Positions 17,075-22,839 of a stretch of 32,000 bases of DNA are shown here, piece by piece; position 1 is the stretch's first letter, and each line of letters starts with the position of its first letter. Both the position numbers and the translations under genes were made by a program. Below the pieces are notes generated by a model. It made no database searches. It was not told where the DNA came from and worked only from the letters and a program-made list of their open reading frames with translations. The stretch is from Candidatus Heimdallarchaeota archaeon B3_Heim. Its GTDB lineage: Archaea > Asgardarchaeota > Heimdallarchaeia > Hodarchaeales > Hodarchaeaceae. The DNA is taken from positions 31,234 to 63,233 of the forward strand of contig NJBF01000028.1 of assembly GCA_003144275.1 (NCBI GenBank). The letters run 5' to 3'.

Positions 17075-17863
17075 TTAAGACGGTTTACGGGCATATGCAT
17101 AAAAAACAGGCATAAAAGACATCATTTCTGATGGTTTAGTTAGTGATATGCTTTGTTGGAGATCTTTCAACTTTGATCTTAATTTTCCTGGAAGAAACAA
17201 TTTTAAGGAGTTAATTTCGTCATTGTACATCTCTTTTACAATATCAGAGATTTGAACGACTGATTGAAGTCCGACTGTTGCCTGAAGTCCAGCTAGAGAA
17301 AACAATTGAGGTAATTTTCTACCTACATTTGGATCCGATGCAGAGAGAGAAGAACATAGCAGTTCCTTCCATTCTTCACCATATGGATGATCTATTCGTC
17401 CACCATAATCGGGTTCAGCCAAACAAGCGATCCATCCACCTGGTTTGGTTACGCGATAGAATTCTTTAATCAGCTGAACTGGATTGTCGAGCCATAAAAG
17501 AAGGTAATTACACAATGTTACATCAAAAACATCATTTTGGATTGGTAGTTTGTTCCCGTCGCCTTGAACGAGTGATGAATGATTATTTTTCCTACAATAT
17601 CCTAAAGCTATGGGATTAAAATCAATTCCAAGAATATCTGCCTTACTTAGAAGATCATTTAGCTCTTGGAGTAGTGCCCCTGTTCCTGAGCCAACTTCTA
17701 GGATTTTTTCAGCCTTGAGTAAATTTATTCTCCTATAAAGATAGTTTCTTGTAGATTTAGTCCAGCTGAGTTGTCTCCTGTACAAATTATCAAAAAAAGA
17801 CGCCTTTTCGGTAGAGAGAAGGATATCATTTGGTGTTAATCGTTCGCTTTGCTTTCGGGACAT
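17075..17863 (-). CDS. Class I SAM-dependent methyltransferase, last gene of the rSAM operon
   Basis: ILEVGSGTG, GDGNKLP...FDVTLC, KPGG.IACLAEPDYGG. ATG 17863 has GGAGG at 17871-17875, so the track start at 17908 is probably over-extended. Confidence 0.88.
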   Translation of the reverse strand: MSRKQSERLTPNDILLSTEKASFFDNLYRRQLSWTKSTRNYLYRRINLLKAEKILEVGSGTGALLQELNDLLSKADILGIDFNPIALGYCRKNNHSSLVQGDGNKLPIQNDVFDVTLCNYLLLWLDNPVQLIKEFYRVTKPGGWIACLAEPDYGGRIDHPYGEEWKELLCSSLSASDPNVGRKLPQLFSLAGLQATVGLQSVVQISDIVKEMYNDEINSLKLFLPGKLRSKLKDLQQSISLTKPSEMMSFMPVFYAYARKPS

Positions 17864-19158
17864 ATATATTCCTCCCGAGTATAACTCAAGGGACATCCAG
17901 CTCCACATAGGTTAAGTTGGCCACAGGTCTGACATTCGTCAGGAACATTGCTTTGGGTACGTATTTCAATAGAAAGGGGATGATTCCATATTTTTTCCCA
18001 AGGATCCTTTAGAATGTTACCTAGTCCTTCGTAATAGCTCTGACATGGGATAACAGTTCCATTAGGTTCGATGGCCATAGCTAGGTGAGAAGCTGAACAT
18101 CTTTTAACTCCAAGCCCCAAATTTACAGGGTCAATATCACAATAACGGGTTGGAGTATACCAAATGAACTCCATTCCATAATCATCTGCTGAATCTTGAA
18201 TTCGTTCCAGTACTGGTAATAGTTCTCTTTCGTTCAACGCAAGTTTAGAAACATTTTTCCCTTTACCCGCATAAATTATAGAATTACAGGCAAATTGTTC
18301 TACTTCTAGTTCATTTAATAGTCCTATGGTATCAATTATGGTTTCTACATTTAACTTAGTAAGGGTTGTATTGGTTAATGTATAAATCGGAGTTTCCACA
18401 GCATTTTTTATACCTGCAATGGTTTCATTCCAAGCTAAATCACTACCCACCATTTGATTATGAATGGATTCATTTGCACTTTCAAGAGTAATTTGAAAAT
18501 GATCAAGACCGGCTTCAACAAGGTTGTTAACATAATCTTGCTCTTTTAATTTCCGACCGTTGGTAATAAGTCCAGTTACGATACCAATAAGTTCAGCACG
18601 TTCTATTAGCTGTGATAAATCTTGTCTTAGTGTCGGTTCCCCACCTGTAAATGTCACATGAGGTATTGAAATCTCCCAAAGTCTTTCCAGTATATCTTTC
18701 CATGTATTGGTTTCTAGTTCGGACGCATTTGGAGATTCTGTTTGATTGTAACAGTGTGAACAAGTATTATTACAACGATAAGTTAATGCAAGATCCATTC
18801 TGAGAGGAGCTGTAAGATTTAATTCTGCAATATTAGATTCTTCTACATTTAATGAATGTATAGGGCATATATCTTCCGTAGTTGAAAGGGAGGTGATCAT
18901 GTCCTTTAGTGCATTAAGATCAGTTTTTGCTTGATGATCTGTCACGCGATAGAGAGATTTCAGCTCATTGAGGATTTTCTGCTCTGGAGTTCCATCTAGA
19001 ATTCTTTCAACGAAGAACGTTGCTGTTTGGTTTAGTTGTAAAATCCTAGATGCATTAATAACAAGGAGCCCATTTTCACCCTGTTTTCGTAAATGGAGAC
19101 GAATCTCACCGAATTGTCCTTCTCGCTGATGAATTAATGAAGACTTCTCTTGGTTCAT
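17836..19158 (-). CDS. Radical SAM/SPASM enzyme with an N-terminal PqqD-like RiPP recognition element
   Basis: CNNTCSHC at 18751-18774, FTGGEPTLR, ITNG; SPASM C-x12-G-x4-C...C-x2-C-x5-C-x3-C...C; N-terminal LVINASRILQLNQTATFFVERI...YRVTDHQAKTDL. ATG 19158 lies 2 nt after the upstream stop. Confidence 0.92.
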   Translation of the reverse strand: MNQEKSSLIHQREGQFGEIRLHLRKQGENGLLVINASRILQLNQTATFFVERILDGTPEQKILNELKSLYRVTDHQAKTDLNALKDMITSLSTTEDICPIHSLNVEESNIAELNLTAPLRMDLALTYRCNNTCSHCYNQTESPNASELETNTWKDILERLWEISIPHVTFTGGEPTLRQDLSQLIERAELIGIVTGLITNGRKLKEQDYVNNLVEAGLDHFQITLESANESIHNQMVGSDLAWNETIAGIKNAVETPIYTLTNTTLTKLNVETIIDTIGLLNELEVEQFACNSIIYAGKGKNVSKLALNERELLPVLERIQDSADDYGMEFIWYTPTRYCDIDPVNLGLGVKRCSASHLAMAIEPNGTVIPCQSYYEGLGNILKDPWEKIWNHPLSIEIRTQSNVPDECQTCGQLNLCGAGCPLSYTREEYICPESKAND

Positions 19159-19160
19159 CG

Positions 19161-19214
19161 TTATCGACCACCACCTGCGCACGCGCACGCACAGCCTGCG
19201 CAAGCGCAAGCACA
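19161..19214 (-). repeat. Tandem peptide repeat (CACACAG)x2 plus GGR-stop
   Basis: Codons tgt gct tgc gct tgc gca ggc / tgt gcg tgc gcg tgc gca ggt. Synonymous differences between the copies suggest the repeat is kept at protein level. Confidence 0.9.
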
Positions 19215-20690
19215 TCCTCCACCGCCTGATCTACCCCGTCCTCTCCCAATTGGTTGAACTGGAGGAGGATAGCTTCTTCTTGTTACTTTTTCTTGAAATG
19301 ATCGACCTCTTGGAACCCAATACCATGAATGATAGTGATAGGTATAATACCAAGGAATATATTCTAGATTCTGTGTTACCTCGATATCAAATTCTGGTTG
19401 ATAATTTTCATCTAATACAGCCCAATACCAGGCTTCAGTTGTTACCGTTTCAAGATCCTCACTTTGCTTTGAAGTTATTTGCAATACTGATTTGTCTATT
19501 AATGATTCATAGAATTGAACTGTTTTATCGTAAGAGTACCCTTTCATCCTACCTCGAGTTAATTTTACAAGAGCCGCGATAGAGCTAATCAAATCCTCCT
19601 CCTTAATACTAAACTCATCACGTAACGATTGCAAGAGAATTTTCTGATATTTCTTTAGATAACGAAGTGATGATCCTTCCATCAACTGAGGATCGGGATA
19701 TTCTTCCGATAATGGTTTAATTAGATCTTTTTCGATTAAGGAAAGAATGATCATAGAAGTTGTGATTTCAACGGGCTTTTCCAATATCACAGCAACCATT
19801 TCTCGCGGGAGATCTGTTCTTGGTCCCGCTGTTGGAACAGATACAAAGGGAGGTACATAATCGAGAAGACGCTTTTCCAGTTTTATTTTTCTGGAACGAC
19901 GAACTATGAAAGAACCAATTACTGCAATAATTATGAATACAACAACTCCACCAATTACTAACCCAAGAATAATTTCCTCTGCAGTAAGTGGAATTCCTTT
20001 AAACCATTTAACCCCCTCTTTTGGAAAAGATATACCATATTTATACTGTTGAGATGGGGAAGCGGTTGGTTCATGCCATTCGTGTACTTTACGGCCATTT
20101 TGAAGAAAAAAGGTGCGAGTGGGGGCTTTTTGATGATATTTTGTATAAGTTGTATCGTCAACAGTACCTGGAAATACCATTCGTGTTGTCAGATTAACAG
20201 TTCCAGTTGTATAAGCTGCACCCCACCATGTATTCCCAAACTGACTAGAAGCCATATCTGATTCTTCTGTATCCCCAAATACCATGTATGGTTGATTACC
20301 TTTGACATGGAGCGTCCCTCTATCAGAAATTGCATACGAATGAAGGTGAATTTCCACACCTACATCGATAACTTCGCTTTCCCGAATATCATAGAGTGGT
20401 TGTCCGTCAAGATCAGCTGATATACTACTCAGCTCATAATGCTTGTTTGGAAATCCTATATCAATTATATCAATATCCTGTCCAGATCCTTCTACTTTAA
20501 AAGTGATCCAGTATTCAATATCAGCCGAACCATCTAAGTTAATTGTGACCTCTACTAATTCATCTGGGACTGAAAAATAATAATTCTGAATATTACTTTC
20601 ACTAGATTCTCCTACAGTAATTATATTGAAGGGTATTAATAGGAGAATAAGGAGTAAATAGATCCGTGCGAGGGTATTGACTTTTCTCAT
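19161..20690 (-). CDS. DUF2207-like membrane protein with a Gly/Cys-Ala repeat C-terminal tail; candidate rSAM substrate
   Basis: N-terminal signal/TM, beta-rich ectodomain (VTINLDGSADIEYWITF), TM IILGLVIGGVVVFIIIAVIGSFIV followed by RRSRK, tail GGGGCACACAGCACACAGGGR*. Confidence 0.85.
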   Translation of the reverse strand: MRKVNTLARIYLLLILLLIPFNIITVGESSESNIQNYYFSVPDELVEVTINLDGSADIEYWITFKVEGSGQDIDIIDIGFPNKHYELSSISADLDGQPLYDIRESEVIDVGVEIHLHSYAISDRGTLHVKGNQPYMVFGDTEESDMASSQFGNTWWGAAYTTGTVNLTTRMVFPGTVDDTTYTKYHQKAPTRTFFLQNGRKVHEWHEPTASPSQQYKYGISFPKEGVKWFKGIPLTAEEIILGLVIGGVVVFIIIAVIGSFIVRRSRKIKLEKRLLDYVPPFVSVPTAGPRTDLPREMVAVILEKPVEITTSMIILSLIEKDLIKPLSEEYPDPQLMEGSSLRYLKKYQKILLQSLRDEFSIKEEDLISSIAALVKLTRGRMKGYSYDKTVQFYESLIDKSVLQITSKQSEDLETVTTEAWYWAVLDENYQPEFDIEVTQNLEYIPWYYTYHYHSWYWVPRGRSFQEKVTRRSYPPPVQPIGRGRGRSGGGGCACACAGCACACAGGGR

Positions 20691-20853: not shown

Positions 20854-22839
20854 TCAGCGTAGATCTTTGATTATTTCTTTGGTAGTAGTCGTGATTTGTT
20901 TGACGGAGCTTGTAATATTGTCTGAGTTTGTGGTTACATTATTTTTGAAATTATCAACCGAGGAATCAATACTACTCTGAACCTCTTCAAACTGAACATC
21001 GATTTTTCTCCTTTGATCATCTATATATTCACGTTGATCATGAGTTTTTCCTATGAAATTATCAGAAGTATTTTGCACTTCAGTGAAGAATTCAGCAAAT
21101 CGCTCTTGTAGCGAGGAGCTATATTTATCTAATGTATCCTGATGATCAGTAATTTTCTGTGATGTATCAGACCGAAATTGAATAAGGGAATTTTTATGCT
21201 CATCTTCCAAGCTTCCTACTAATACTGTTGTTGATTCCTCACTATCCTTCACCGCTTGATCGAGTTTATCATTGGTAATCGATACTATGTTTTGAATAGC
21301 AACCAGTCCATCTTGTTCTATAGTTCGAATTTGTTTTCTTAGATCATCGAATGCGGCCGTACTGGACCGTTTTATTTCGGAATTCTTGGTCTTGATGACT
21401 TCACGATTAGTTTCTACCACTGTATCAGCAGTAGGGGCTATTGATGAAACTGTTGTAAGTAATTCGCTCTGTTTTGACTGTAAAGTGCGTCTCACGTCTG
21501 TTAATGTTATTTCAATATTTTTTTCTTGACTTGTTTGAATTTCCTTGAACTGCTGACTTATTCCTTCTTGTAGGTCTCCAAGAGTAGTTTCATGTTTAAT
21601 CAAGACATCTTTCATTCCATCTTGGGATTTTTTAAAGAAGCCCATTAAGGATCCATTAAGGTCTGATGTTGTATCTTCTAACTTGGATTTGGTTTTTACA
21701 CCAAATTGTTCAAATGAGCTATTGATATTTGCGTACCAGTTTTCAAATGCTTTTGTCAATGTCTCAGAGGTTCTAAGACGCTTTTTACTAAAATCTGAAG
21801 AAACACGTGAGAGTGAAGAAAGTATTTGTTCCTCTAATTGACGAAAACCTGATTTGAGCGAATTTTCAAATTCCGTGGTGACTTTAGATTGCAGCTCTTC
21901 ATTTGTTTTTAGTGCAGATATAAAAGATTCGAAAACATTTTCCTTGATATTACTAATGGTCTGTTTTTGTTCCTCCTGGTATTTCTGCCACTCACTATAA
22001 TATCCATCAACTCCCTTCTCAATTTTTGTTTTTACTCCTTCCCTCTCTTCTTTAATAATTTCGATAACTCTTTGCTGAGACTCATTTAGTAATTCTTTTT
22101 GACGAATAAGATTATCATCCAGACGTGCTTTAAGACCATCAATTCCTGCGAGTAAATCTTCTTTAGCAATTTCTAGTCTGGAAACAGATTGTCTCAAAGT
22201 ATTCGCAAAAACATTGTCCAGTTCATTCTCTTTAGCATCACTAATTTGTGTCACACGATTATTAAATTCATCCAACGCTTGAAGAAAGGATGAGGCTACG
22301 CTATCTGACATCTCCCCAATATTTGCATTTTCTCTCTCGACGGTACTAACGAATTCCTTTTGTACGTCCGCTAACTTGTTGGAAATTTGATCTTGAAATT
22401 CCTTGATCTGTTTATACTGATGAGAATAGATATCATCCAATCCAGTATTCACTTTACCAGCCATTTCCCCATAGATTTGGGAAATGTCCTCTTCTTGCTT
22501 TTTTGTAAGTGAATTTAATTGTTTTTGCAGAGTAACTGTCCCTTTCTGCAATTGGTCAAGTAATTTTTCTAAACGAGAGCCGAAATCTCCTTTCTCTGAT
22601 TCAATATCGGTTTTGAGACCTTTCAAGTTATCTGTTAAATCACTAACAGTTGTTGCCAAATTGGCTATTTGCGATAAAATATCCGTTTTACCTTGGTCAA
22701 TATTTCGTGAAACAGAACTAGTTTGTTTCTTAATGTCTTGTTGAAAATCCTTCACTCGATTCTCATATTGACCACCCTCACTTTCAAGCTTCGCAAGATG
22801 ATCTTTTATTACATTTACTTTGTTATCTTGTTCAGACAT
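20854..22839 (-). CDS. All-helical protein with 11-residue (hendecad) amphipathic repeats
   Basis: 661 aa, no TM, no Cys, one Pro; hydrophobic residues recur every 11 aa; AGGTGA RBS at 22846-22851. Confidence 0.8.
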   Translation of the reverse strand: MSEQDNKVNVIKDHLAKLESEGGQYENRVKDFQQDIKKQTSSVSRNIDQGKTDILSQIANLATTVSDLTDNLKGLKTDIESEKGDFGSRLEKLLDQLQKGTVTLQKQLNSLTKKQEEDISQIYGEMAGKVNTGLDDIYSHQYKQIKEFQDQISNKLADVQKEFVSTVERENANIGEMSDSVASSFLQALDEFNNRVTQISDAKENELDNVFANTLRQSVSRLEIAKEDLLAGIDGLKARLDDNLIRQKELLNESQQRVIEIIKEEREGVKTKIEKGVDGYYSEWQKYQEEQKQTISNIKENVFESFISALKTNEELQSKVTTEFENSLKSGFRQLEEQILSSLSRVSSDFSKKRLRTSETLTKAFENWYANINSSFEQFGVKTKSKLEDTTSDLNGSLMGFFKKSQDGMKDVLIKHETTLGDLQEGISQQFKEIQTSQEKNIEITLTDVRRTLQSKQSELLTTVSSIAPTADTVVETNREVIKTKNSEIKRSSTAAFDDLRKQIRTIEQDGLVAIQNIVSITNDKLDQAVKDSEESTTVLVGSLEDEHKNSLIQFRSDTSQKITDHQDTLDKYSSSLQERFAEFFTEVQNTSDNFIGKTHDQREYIDDQRRKIDVQFEEVQSSIDSSVDNFKNNVTTNSDNITSSVKQITTTTKEIIKDLR

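Follow-up and report, generated by a model that had tools for sequence, protein, structure and literature searches.

Genes at the locus

The stretch of DNA analysed here (the window; 32,000 nt of contig NJBF01000028.1 from Candidatus Heimdallarchaeota archaeon B3_Heim) carries on its minus strand the gene of a membrane protein, P0001 (the carrier), which ends in a repeat of alternating Cys and Ala residues, and behind it the gene of a radical S-adenosylmethionine (SAM) enzyme, P0002, with a recognition element (RRE) of the kind found in maturases of ribosomally synthesised and post-translationally modified peptides (RiPPs). The tail of the carrier and its relation to this enzyme are the subject of this work. 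The two genes and the tail are located as follows, with the basis of each assignment in brackets:

19161..20690, minus strand: carrier gene P0001, 509 residues, a divergent DUF2207-like single-pass membrane protein with a Cys-Ala tail (open reading frame, homology search, AlphaFold2 (AF2) model)
19164..19214, minus strand: invariant tail CACACAG-CACACAG-GGR, C493-R509, putative modified core (homologue tails, AF2 disorder, independent contig)
17836..19158, minus strand: RRE-radical SAM-SPASM enzyme P0002, 440 residues (Pfam domains)

Together with the four Gly residues in front of it, the tail takes up the last 21 codons and the stop codon of the carrier gene (GGGG-CACACAG-CACACAG-GGR). A reading made from the sequence only, before any database search, had described an exact duplication of seven residues written in different synonymous codons and set in a GC-rich patch of an AT-rich region, and both observations were confirmed. 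The codons of the first heptad (TGT GCT TGC GCT TGC GCA GGC) and of the second (TGT GCG TGC GCG TGC GCA GGT) agree at 18 of 21 nt, the three differences are all synonymous, and the heptads are identical as peptides; the GC content of the final 66 nt is 68 %, compared with 38.6 % for the carrier gene and 36.6 % for the window. G489-G492 are encoded by GGC GGT GGA GGA, and the terminal codons are GGT GGT CGA TAA.

An independent cold-seep contig with 97 % identity covers positions 19133-19310 and differs from the window within the tail only at 19206 and 19209, both of them third codon positions and both changes synonymous. The tail is therefore genuine, and an assembly artefact, which the sequence-only reading had named as a possible refutation, is excluded as its origin. 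No sequence of a run labelled as a metatranscriptome matched the stretch, which has no bearing on expression. One copy of the tail was found in a six-frame scan of the source genome. Another short Cys-alternating run, GGGGCGCGCG, lies outside the window within an open frame (genome G000, contig C21, minus strand, near 54184); it is not C-terminal and does not adjoin a carrier and radical SAM system.

Across 84 genes from the collected genomic loci, the last ten residues of the protein are encoded by 83 distinct DNA strings, which use 2/2 Cys codons, 4/4 Ala codons, 4/4 Gly codons, 6/6 Arg codons and 3/3 stop codons. With nearly every gene spelling these residues differently, it is the peptide that is under selection, and not the DNA or RNA. 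The GC-rich patch was also considered as a DNA or RNA element, and this was rejected since the codons vary freely.

Conservation of the tail in the carrier family

The first homology search selects its candidates by shared 5-residue words and is thus biased toward tail-bearing proteins; it returned about 120 proteins, nearly all with the same tail at the end. The search was repeated exhaustively with residues 1-480 only as the query, so that the tail was left out (E <= 1e-3), and 482 representative homologues were found by the body of the protein. Among the best 150 of these representatives, 108 end in (CA)nG(CA)mGGGR and 4 in near variants, and almost all others are short fragments. The ending CACACAGGGR is present in 341 of the 345 distinct tailed proteins, and the bodies of the homologues are only 25-35 % identical to that of the window's protein. 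The alignment test that the sequence-only reading had proposed for itself, an invariant tail against a divergent body, was thus passed. The tail is far beyond chance, is conserved across hundreds of homologues and defines the whole protein family.

The commonest form of the tail has seven Cys (CACACACAG-CACACAGGGR, 199 of the 345 proteins), and the six-Cys form of the window is the second commonest (57 proteins). In the minor forms, the first block consists of 2-5 Cys-Ala units or the second block of four units, or the central Gly is replaced by Ser or Val-Ser, or is absent. No stand-alone short precursor with the tail was found among the database proteins; all 119 short tail-bearing proteins (119/119) are fragments of the carrier family. 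When the tail region was compared with NCBIfam at E up to 10, only a meaningless 6-bit match to FibroRumin was obtained.

Topology and fold of the carrier

Four features of the carrier upstream of the tail region were assigned from hydropathy and from the AF2 model, for which confidence is given as the predicted local distance difference test (pLDDT):

20613..20669, minus strand: N-terminal hydrophobic segment, residues 8-26, signal peptide or signal anchor (Kyte-Doolittle 2.24)
20022..20576, minus strand: beta-rich extracytoplasmic domain, residues 39-223 (AF2 pLDDT 95-98)
19917..19973, minus strand: core of the transmembrane (TM) helix, residues 240-258, followed by RRSRKIK (Kyte-Doolittle 3.34)
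19272..19805, minus strand: helical cytoplasmic domain, residues 296-473 (AF2 helices, pLDDT mostly 77-95)

The AF2 model was built from a 40-sequence alignment and has a pLDDT of 84. In it, residues 39-223 form a beta ectodomain, 237-276 a single long TM helix and 296-473 a helical domain, and the tail from 482 to 509 is disordered; the N-terminal hydrophobic segment, with 2 Lys/Arg ahead of it, lies in a modelled helix spanning residues 2-26. In the hydropathy scan, 6 Lys/Arg were counted within 15 residues after the TM segment 240-258 and 2 before it. Since basic residues follow the TM helix, as the positive-inside rule requires for the cytoplasmic side, and since the modelled fold ends in a disordered tail, the tail is predicted to be cytoplasmic and exposed. 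The topology drawn in the sequence-only reading (signal or TM segment, ectodomain, TM segment, RRSRKIK, and thus a cytoplasmic tail) agrees with both the residue count and the model. A weaker hydrophobic stretch near residue 300 in the homologues was not taken as a second TM segment, as it falls within the confidently folded helical domain. The body of the carrier contains no Cys outside the tail.

The top fold matches to the carrier model in the AlphaFold database were DUF2207 proteins, and fold comparison showed that the ectodomain is similar both to the N-domain of DUF2207 and to the beta domain at the N-terminus of M1 aminopeptidases. At the level of sequence, the carrier gave nothing above cut-off in Pfam or NCBIfam. 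It had no match to the DUF2207 models (PF09972, PF20990), with which bacterial members of the family reached 12.8-17.2 bits (cut-offs 24.4 and 33), so that the DUF2207_C matches in the bacterial homologues are sub-threshold. The TIGR04222 model likewise did not match the carrier, and its sole match in the family was the bacterial member P0056 (14 bits, cut-off 43).

Anatomy of the C-terminus

Between the helical domain and the tail, two further elements were recognised in alignments of the homologues, including one of their last 75 residues (A3):

19260..19298, minus strand: conserved leader-like motif F465-P477, consensus FTxxVTxxTNPxP, candidate RRE recognition sequence (alignments A1 and A3)
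19215..19259, minus strand: variable Gly/Ser/Arg linker, residues 478-492, including the four Gly (alignment of homologues)

In the window the motif reads SFQEKVTRRSYPPP. P475 is invariant in both alignments, and P477 is invariant in A1 and nearly so in A3. This motif is a putative ligand of the RRE. The linker of about 10-25 residues differs in both length and sequence among the homologues, and GGGG stands directly before the first Cys in 132 of the 345 tailed proteins (38 %). Judged by its sequence, the C-terminus has the layout of a RiPP precursor, namely recognition sequence, spacer and core, grafted onto a protein.

The radical SAM enzyme

The domains and Cys motifs of P0002 are located as follows:

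18907..19059, minus strand: PqqD-like RRE, residues 34-84 (PF05402, 25.6 bits, cut-off 23.4)
18319..18786, minus strand: radical SAM core with C129-x3-C133-x2-C136 (PF04055, E 4.9e-24)
17851..18141, minus strand: SPASM region with C340, C354, C372, C409, C412, C418 and C422, together with C436 (PF13186, orthologue alignment)

The start codon of P0002 lies 2 nt past the carrier stop codon on the same strand, and the Pfam matches in the enzyme span residues 34-84 (PqqD), 125-280 (Radical_SAM) and 354-412 (SPASM; PF13186, 39 bits, cut-off 21.5). In 35 orthologues, C129, C133 and C136 are invariant, as are C340, C354, C372, C409, C412 and C418 of the SPASM region, and C422 is present in 34/35. An eighth SPASM Cys, C436, is found in all Asgard orthologues and in 17/35 overall; going by these motifs and by analogy with anSME, we infer that a set of eight would suffice to ligate two auxiliary clusters fully. 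The orthologues are 42-51 % identical between Asgard archaea and bacteria (n = 35), and the enzyme is far more conserved than the carrier.

None of the NCBIfam maturase families (PqqE, SkfB, StsB, GeoRSP, ScmE, MftC, ACGX and WgkB) matched P0002 above its cut-off; the best score was that of PqqE (130.8 bits against 381), and those of SkfB, StsB and ACGX were 92 against 300, 80 against 625 and 62.7 against 400, respectively. The orthologue of the cultured Bellilinea is likewise below every curated NCBIfam maturase cut-off. By sequence, the nearest solved relatives of P0002 are SkfB, PqqE, SuiB and CteB, all of which are peptide maturases and all of which are distant. A complex predicted from the alignment of the enzyme and that of the C-terminal 75 residues, with three 4Fe-4S clusters and SAM, scored 0.27, where the mark is 0.32, and speaks neither for nor against binding.

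The features by which an RRE-dependent maturase is recognised are all present for P0002: a CX3CX2C motif, a seven-Cys SPASM domain, a PqqD-like RRE, and an adjacent gene of a putative substrate with which it is co-inherited. The suggestion of the sequence-only reading that an Fe-S enzyme could reach the tail is thus borne out, as the very next gene encodes an RRE-radical SAM-SPASM enzyme, conserved next to the carrier in both synteny and co-occurrence.

Gene cassette and co-occurrence

For the synteny analysis, 80 named genomic loci were collected, and neighbouring genes were clustered over 83 loci. The archaeal loci belong to Asgard archaea (Hod-, Heimdall- and Promethearchaeota) and Methanomassiliicoccaceae. 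The bacterial loci include many Anaerolineae (among them the cultured Bellilinea caldifistulae GOMI-1 and Leptolinea sp. HRD-7), Acidobacteriota, Aminicenantes and Zixibacteria, and further loci come from Cloacimonadota, Fermentibacteraceae, Edwardsbacteria, Planctomycetota, Armatimonadota and one deltaproteobacterium. The cassette recurs in more than 10 phyla. Most of the hosting taxa are lineages known as anaerobes, which fits with oxygen-sensitive chemistry.

The order of the cassette is a Zn-ribbon protein of about 124 residues, the carrier, the RRE-radical SAM-SPASM enzyme, an RRE-bearing paralogue of this enzyme, and a methyltransferase. The Zn-ribbon protein is a membrane-anchored C4 zinc ribbon with an EEPKW ending, and its gene is present in 48 loci, mostly bacterial but also in Methanomassiliicoccaceae and the Asgard family f16. 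The paralogue, found mainly in Anaerolineae, is without the CX3CX2C motif and the SPASM Cys in 31/32 cases. An orthologous methyltransferase is present in 48/83 loci, usually as the last gene of the cassette. The Asgard cassette of the window is the minimal form (carrier, radical SAM enzyme and methyltransferase), of which the third gene is:

17075..17908, minus strand: class I SAM-dependent methyltransferase P0003 (Methyltransf_11, E 4.6e-20)

The likely start of P0003 is an internal Met at 17863, which overlaps the end of the radical SAM gene. The bacterial Zn-ribbon partner was not found in a motif scan of the source genome. In Candidatus Heimdallarchaeum aukensis, a gene encoding a TM segment and a C4 zinc ribbon, with no EEPKW ending, lies directly upstream of the carrier (L066:5423-5935, plus strand), and its product may be a functional equivalent of the small bacterial partner.

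The radical SAM gene adjoins the carrier gene in at least 62 of the 71 evaluable loci, and most of the apparent exceptions are gene-calling artefacts. In 56 other loci, the distance from the carrier stop codon to the radical SAM start codon ranges from -11 to +84 nt and is often -1 or -4. In four genomes the carrier is truly unlinked, and each of them encodes a strong radical SAM orthologue elsewhere (600-686 bits), one of which adjoins a second copy of the carrier.

Co-occurrence was determined in a sample of 201 genomes of the window's phylum. In the window's own genus, 6 genomes have both the carrier and the enzyme and 4 have neither, and in the sister family f2 both occur in the same 20 genomes out of 22. 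This matching presence and absence means that carrier and enzyme genes are acquired and lost together. In the Asgard family f16, the cassette is split over separate contigs, with the Zn-ribbon and carrier genes on one (L094:920-3527) and the radical SAM and a methyltransferase-like gene on the other (L095:3046-5158); the f16 carrier ends in CACACACVS-CACACAGGGR.

Two candidates from these loci were rejected. A 463-residue open reading frame ending in GGGSCCG, upstream of unlinked radical SAM genes (L088, L089), has no relationship to the carrier (hhalign probability 0.4 %) and is probably a shadow reading frame in high-GC DNA. An apparent 1011-residue fusion of carrier and radical SAM enzyme in a long-read Methanomassiliicoccaceae metagenome-assembled genome (L076:7200-8000) is a frame shift, most likely a homopolymer indel error, and the tail is intact in the +1 frame.

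The sole conserved partners in the 83 loci are the Zn-ribbon protein, the radical SAM enzyme, its cluster-less paralogue and the methyltransferase, and the clustering of neighbours yielded no conserved protease, transporter or exporter, or acyltransferase. Two explanations of the tail were compared with these results. In the first, the carrier is a long precursor whose tail is cut within the Gly-rich linker and released as a free, classical RiPP of about 17 residues, and the sequence-only reading had likewise suggested the four Gly as a cleavage point. The leader-like motif, the flexible linker, the position of the core at the extreme C-terminus and the RRE of the maturase would all fit such a precursor. 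However, the loci share no conserved protease, C39-type transporter or other exporter; the linker is variable and has no conserved cleavage motif, GGGG occurring in only 38 % of the tailed proteins; the short tail-bearing proteins are all fragments of the large family; a conserved two-domain membrane protein of about 500 residues would be a costly leader; and RiPP cores normally vary, whereas this tail is invariant. Release of the tail, with cleavage at the four Gly, is therefore very unlikely.

In the second explanation, the Cys are sites of lipidation, by S-acylation or a similar reaction, which anchor the C-terminus in the membrane, and the enzymes encoded next to the carrier have nothing to do with the tail. 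The Cys are cytoplasmic and stand on the flexible tail of a membrane protein, as such sites would, but no acyltransferase is conserved nearby, and both the strict link to the RRE-radical SAM-SPASM enzyme and the invariance of Ala, Gly and the terminal Arg would be left unexplained. Nothing else was found that points to lipidation, which the sequence-only reading had listed as an option and which can hardly be credited.

A few related arrangements were also seen. A 661-residue protein, free of Cys, rich in repeats and apparently coiled-coil, is encoded directly upstream of the carrier in the window (20854-22839, minus strand); its gene is not conserved with the cassette in the remaining 82 loci. 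In a variant bacterial cassette (L020, L022, L043 and L056; for example L020:5905-9686), there are two tandem carriers ending in CACACAG-CACACACAGGGR or similar, and upstream of them lie a radical SAM/SPASM gene, a gene for a protein of about 300 residues with a weak match to the Met_synt_B12 activation domain (23 bits, cut-off 25), and a second radical SAM/SPASM gene. In the Asgard family f10, the cytoplasmic domain of the carrier is matched (E 7e-27) by a 752-residue protein (L092:9576-11834, plus strand) whose C-terminus carries another type of Cys repeat, (ACHS)n and then VSGGYR. About 6 kb away on the opposite strand lies a divergent radical SAM/SPASM gene, scoring about 360 bits to the profile (L092:1837-3270, minus strand). 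This pair may be a sister system with another core.

Proposed modification of the tail

The tail is probably the substrate of the adjacent RRE-radical SAM-SPASM enzyme and would form a RiPP-like core on the C-terminus of the carrier. This explanation draws on the anatomy of the C-terminus, its invariance at the peptide level, its cytoplasmic placement, the adjacency and co-occurrence of the two genes, and the intact catalytic motifs of the enzyme; the divergent radical SAM enzyme and the carrier relative with the (ACHS)n tail in a sister Asgard family were also counted in its favour. In the proposed sequence of events, the PqqD-like domain of the co-transcribed enzyme probably docks on the FTxxVTxxTNPxP motif, about 15-25 residues upstream of the tail, and the enzyme would then modify the disordered tail by radical chemistry on or beside the Cys. 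The most likely products would be thioethers of the sactionine or ranthionine type, in which Cys sulfur is joined to Ala or Gly carbons. Thioether formation is favoured, though only tentatively, by analogy: where characterised RRE-SPASM enzymes have Cys-rich cores as substrates, they link Cys to carbon by thioethers. The methyltransferase may add a second, later modification. Since neither a protease nor an exporter is conserved, the product, if the tail is modified, probably remains part of the carrier and would form a permanent chemical structure on the inner side of the membrane.

Several points weigh against this explanation. In the characterised sacti- and ranthipeptides, the donor Cys and the acceptors are kept in separate halves of the core and the acceptors are usually larger residues; in the tail, only Ala and Gly are on offer as acceptors. 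The first block holds anything from 2 to 5 Cys-Ala units, and the central Gly can be absent; both are a poor fit to one fixed ring topology, and the strict picture of nested rings in two registers, as drawn in the sequence-only reading, is weakened by them. The score of P0002 is far below the cut-off of every curated sactisynthase and ranthisynthase family. In the Asgard family f16, where the carrier and the enzyme are unlinked, the enzyme is present in 19/19 sampled genomes and the carrier was detected in only 10. Finally, RiPP cores are not usually as invariant as this; the tail in this respect recalls the unvarying residues of cofactor precursors, and its invariance suits a cofactor or a metal site at least equally.

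Two further explanations concern a cofactor or a metal site. It is conceivable, although doubtful, that the radical SAM enzyme and the methyltransferase convert the tail into a protein-borne cofactor or metal centre tethered at the cytoplasmic face of the membrane. If this were true, it would be a new peptide-derived prosthetic group, like pyrroloquinoline quinone (PQQ) and mycofactocin but never released, which would be common to anaerobic bacteria and to archaea including the Asgard archaea, and which would give the DUF2207-like proteins a function.

As an alternative that is unlikely but to be taken seriously, the tail would mainly be a metal or Fe-S site, a metallothionein-like CxC run at the inner face of the membrane, on which the radical SAM enzyme helps to load or build a cluster or which it uses as a scaffold or sulfur donor, with no cross-linking. 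The sequence-only reading had listed such a site as one of four options, beside nested thioethers, lipidation and cleavage at the four Gly, and had preferred none. Six to eight Cys in strict CxC spacing on a protein with no Cys in its body would be well suited to this, the invariance across two domains of life would correspond to a defined coordination geometry or cofactor, the host organisms are mostly anaerobes, and published analogues made by RiPP-type enzymes (bufferins and methanobactins) serve metal handling. A plain metal site, however, needs no RRE-bearing maturase, and yet the enzyme accompanies the carrier almost without exception; the characterised RRE-radical SAM-SPASM enzymes covalently modify peptides. 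A metal site and covalent modification could be compatible, if the modification creates the metal site.

Comparison with known systems

A literature search returned no description of this system, the sole match to the tail string being a human DNA primer, and no model in Pfam or NCBIfam covers the carrier, the tail or the clade of the radical SAM enzyme. The features of a classical RiPP cluster, a short leader-core precursor and a leader protease or exporter encoded in the cluster, were looked for and were absent.

In mechanism, the sacti- and ranthipeptide maturases come nearest to the system. The enzyme shares its N-terminal RRE, radical SAM core and SPASM/twitch domain with the sacti- and ranthipeptide systems (SkfB/SkfA, CteB/SCIFF, AlbA/SboA and PapB/freyrasin), in which a Cys-rich substrate is likewise encoded immediately upstream, and SkfB and CteB are among its nearest solved relatives. 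The differences lie mainly in the substrate. The precursors of those systems are roughly 40-60 residues long and their cores are variable, whereas the substrate proposed here is the C-terminus of a membrane protein of about 500 residues with a core that is invariant across two domains of life. In addition, only Ala and Gly are available as acceptors here, no protease or exporter accompanies the genes, and the enzyme falls below the family cut-offs. The ACGX system (TIGR04340) couples a radical SAM/SPASM enzyme to a substrate built from short Ala-Cys-containing repeats, and this substrate is a small peptide and not the tail of a protein. The combination of a radical SAM/SPASM enzyme with Ala-Cys repeats is thus common to both systems, but the window's enzyme reaches only 62.7 bits of the 400 required by that family.

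SPASM enzymes that act on the Cys of proteins, with the modification kept for function, are represented by anSME, which converts a Cys or Ser of sulfatases to formylglycine, and by QhpD, which forms the thioethers of QhpC. The eight-Cys set of anSME ligates two full auxiliary clusters, and the same set is present in the Asgard radical SAM enzyme. In contrast to P0002, anSME has no RRE, and it recognises C/S-x-P/A-x-R, a motif absent from the tail; no sulfatase or amine dehydrogenase gene belongs to the cassette in the 83 loci.

The carrier has the same fold and topology as DUF2207 proteins (PF09972 / PF20990), with a signal or anchor segment, a beta ectodomain, a TM helix, a helical cytoplasmic domain and a low-complexity tail, but sequences of the carrier family match them only below threshold. 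To our knowledge, the tails of ordinary DUF2207 proteins are rich in Gly and show neither a Cys-Ala repeat nor a link to a radical SAM enzyme.

Among published cases, the nearest in concept are the TIGR04222 membrane proteins, whose Cys-containing, Ser/Gly-rich C-terminal tails are putative protein substrates of MNIO enzymes, their modification being undemonstrated (PMC12452194). The remark in the sequence-only reading that Cys- and Gly-rich tails without demonstrated modification are known from other membrane proteins corresponds to this case (PMC12452194). The concept is the same in both, a disordered, Cys-bearing C-terminal tail of a full-size membrane protein being the proposed substrate, but in the TIGR04222 case the enzyme is of the MNIO/DUF692 type and the tails are predicted to be periplasmic, diverse and loosely linked (PMC12452194). 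The tail of the carrier is instead predicted to be cytoplasmic, and it is invariant and tightly linked to a radical SAM enzyme.

In light of these comparisons, the system is best regarded as RRE-radical SAM-SPASM maturation applied to an invariant core borne by a protein. If confirmed, this would be a new class of post-translational protein modification and the first functional handle on DUF2207-like proteins. The putative enzyme-substrate pair is a clean one, with cultured hosts in Bellilinea caldifistulae and Leptolinea sp. HRD-7 and a minimal Asgard form of three genes. Such enzymes are otherwise familiar as producers of small peptides that are secreted. In the window, the machinery of peptide maturation appears to be tied permanently to the tail of a membrane protein of full size, and this tail is the same in Asgard archaea and Chloroflexota. 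Invariance to this degree implies that the chemical product is precise and that its cellular role is conserved in anaerobes.

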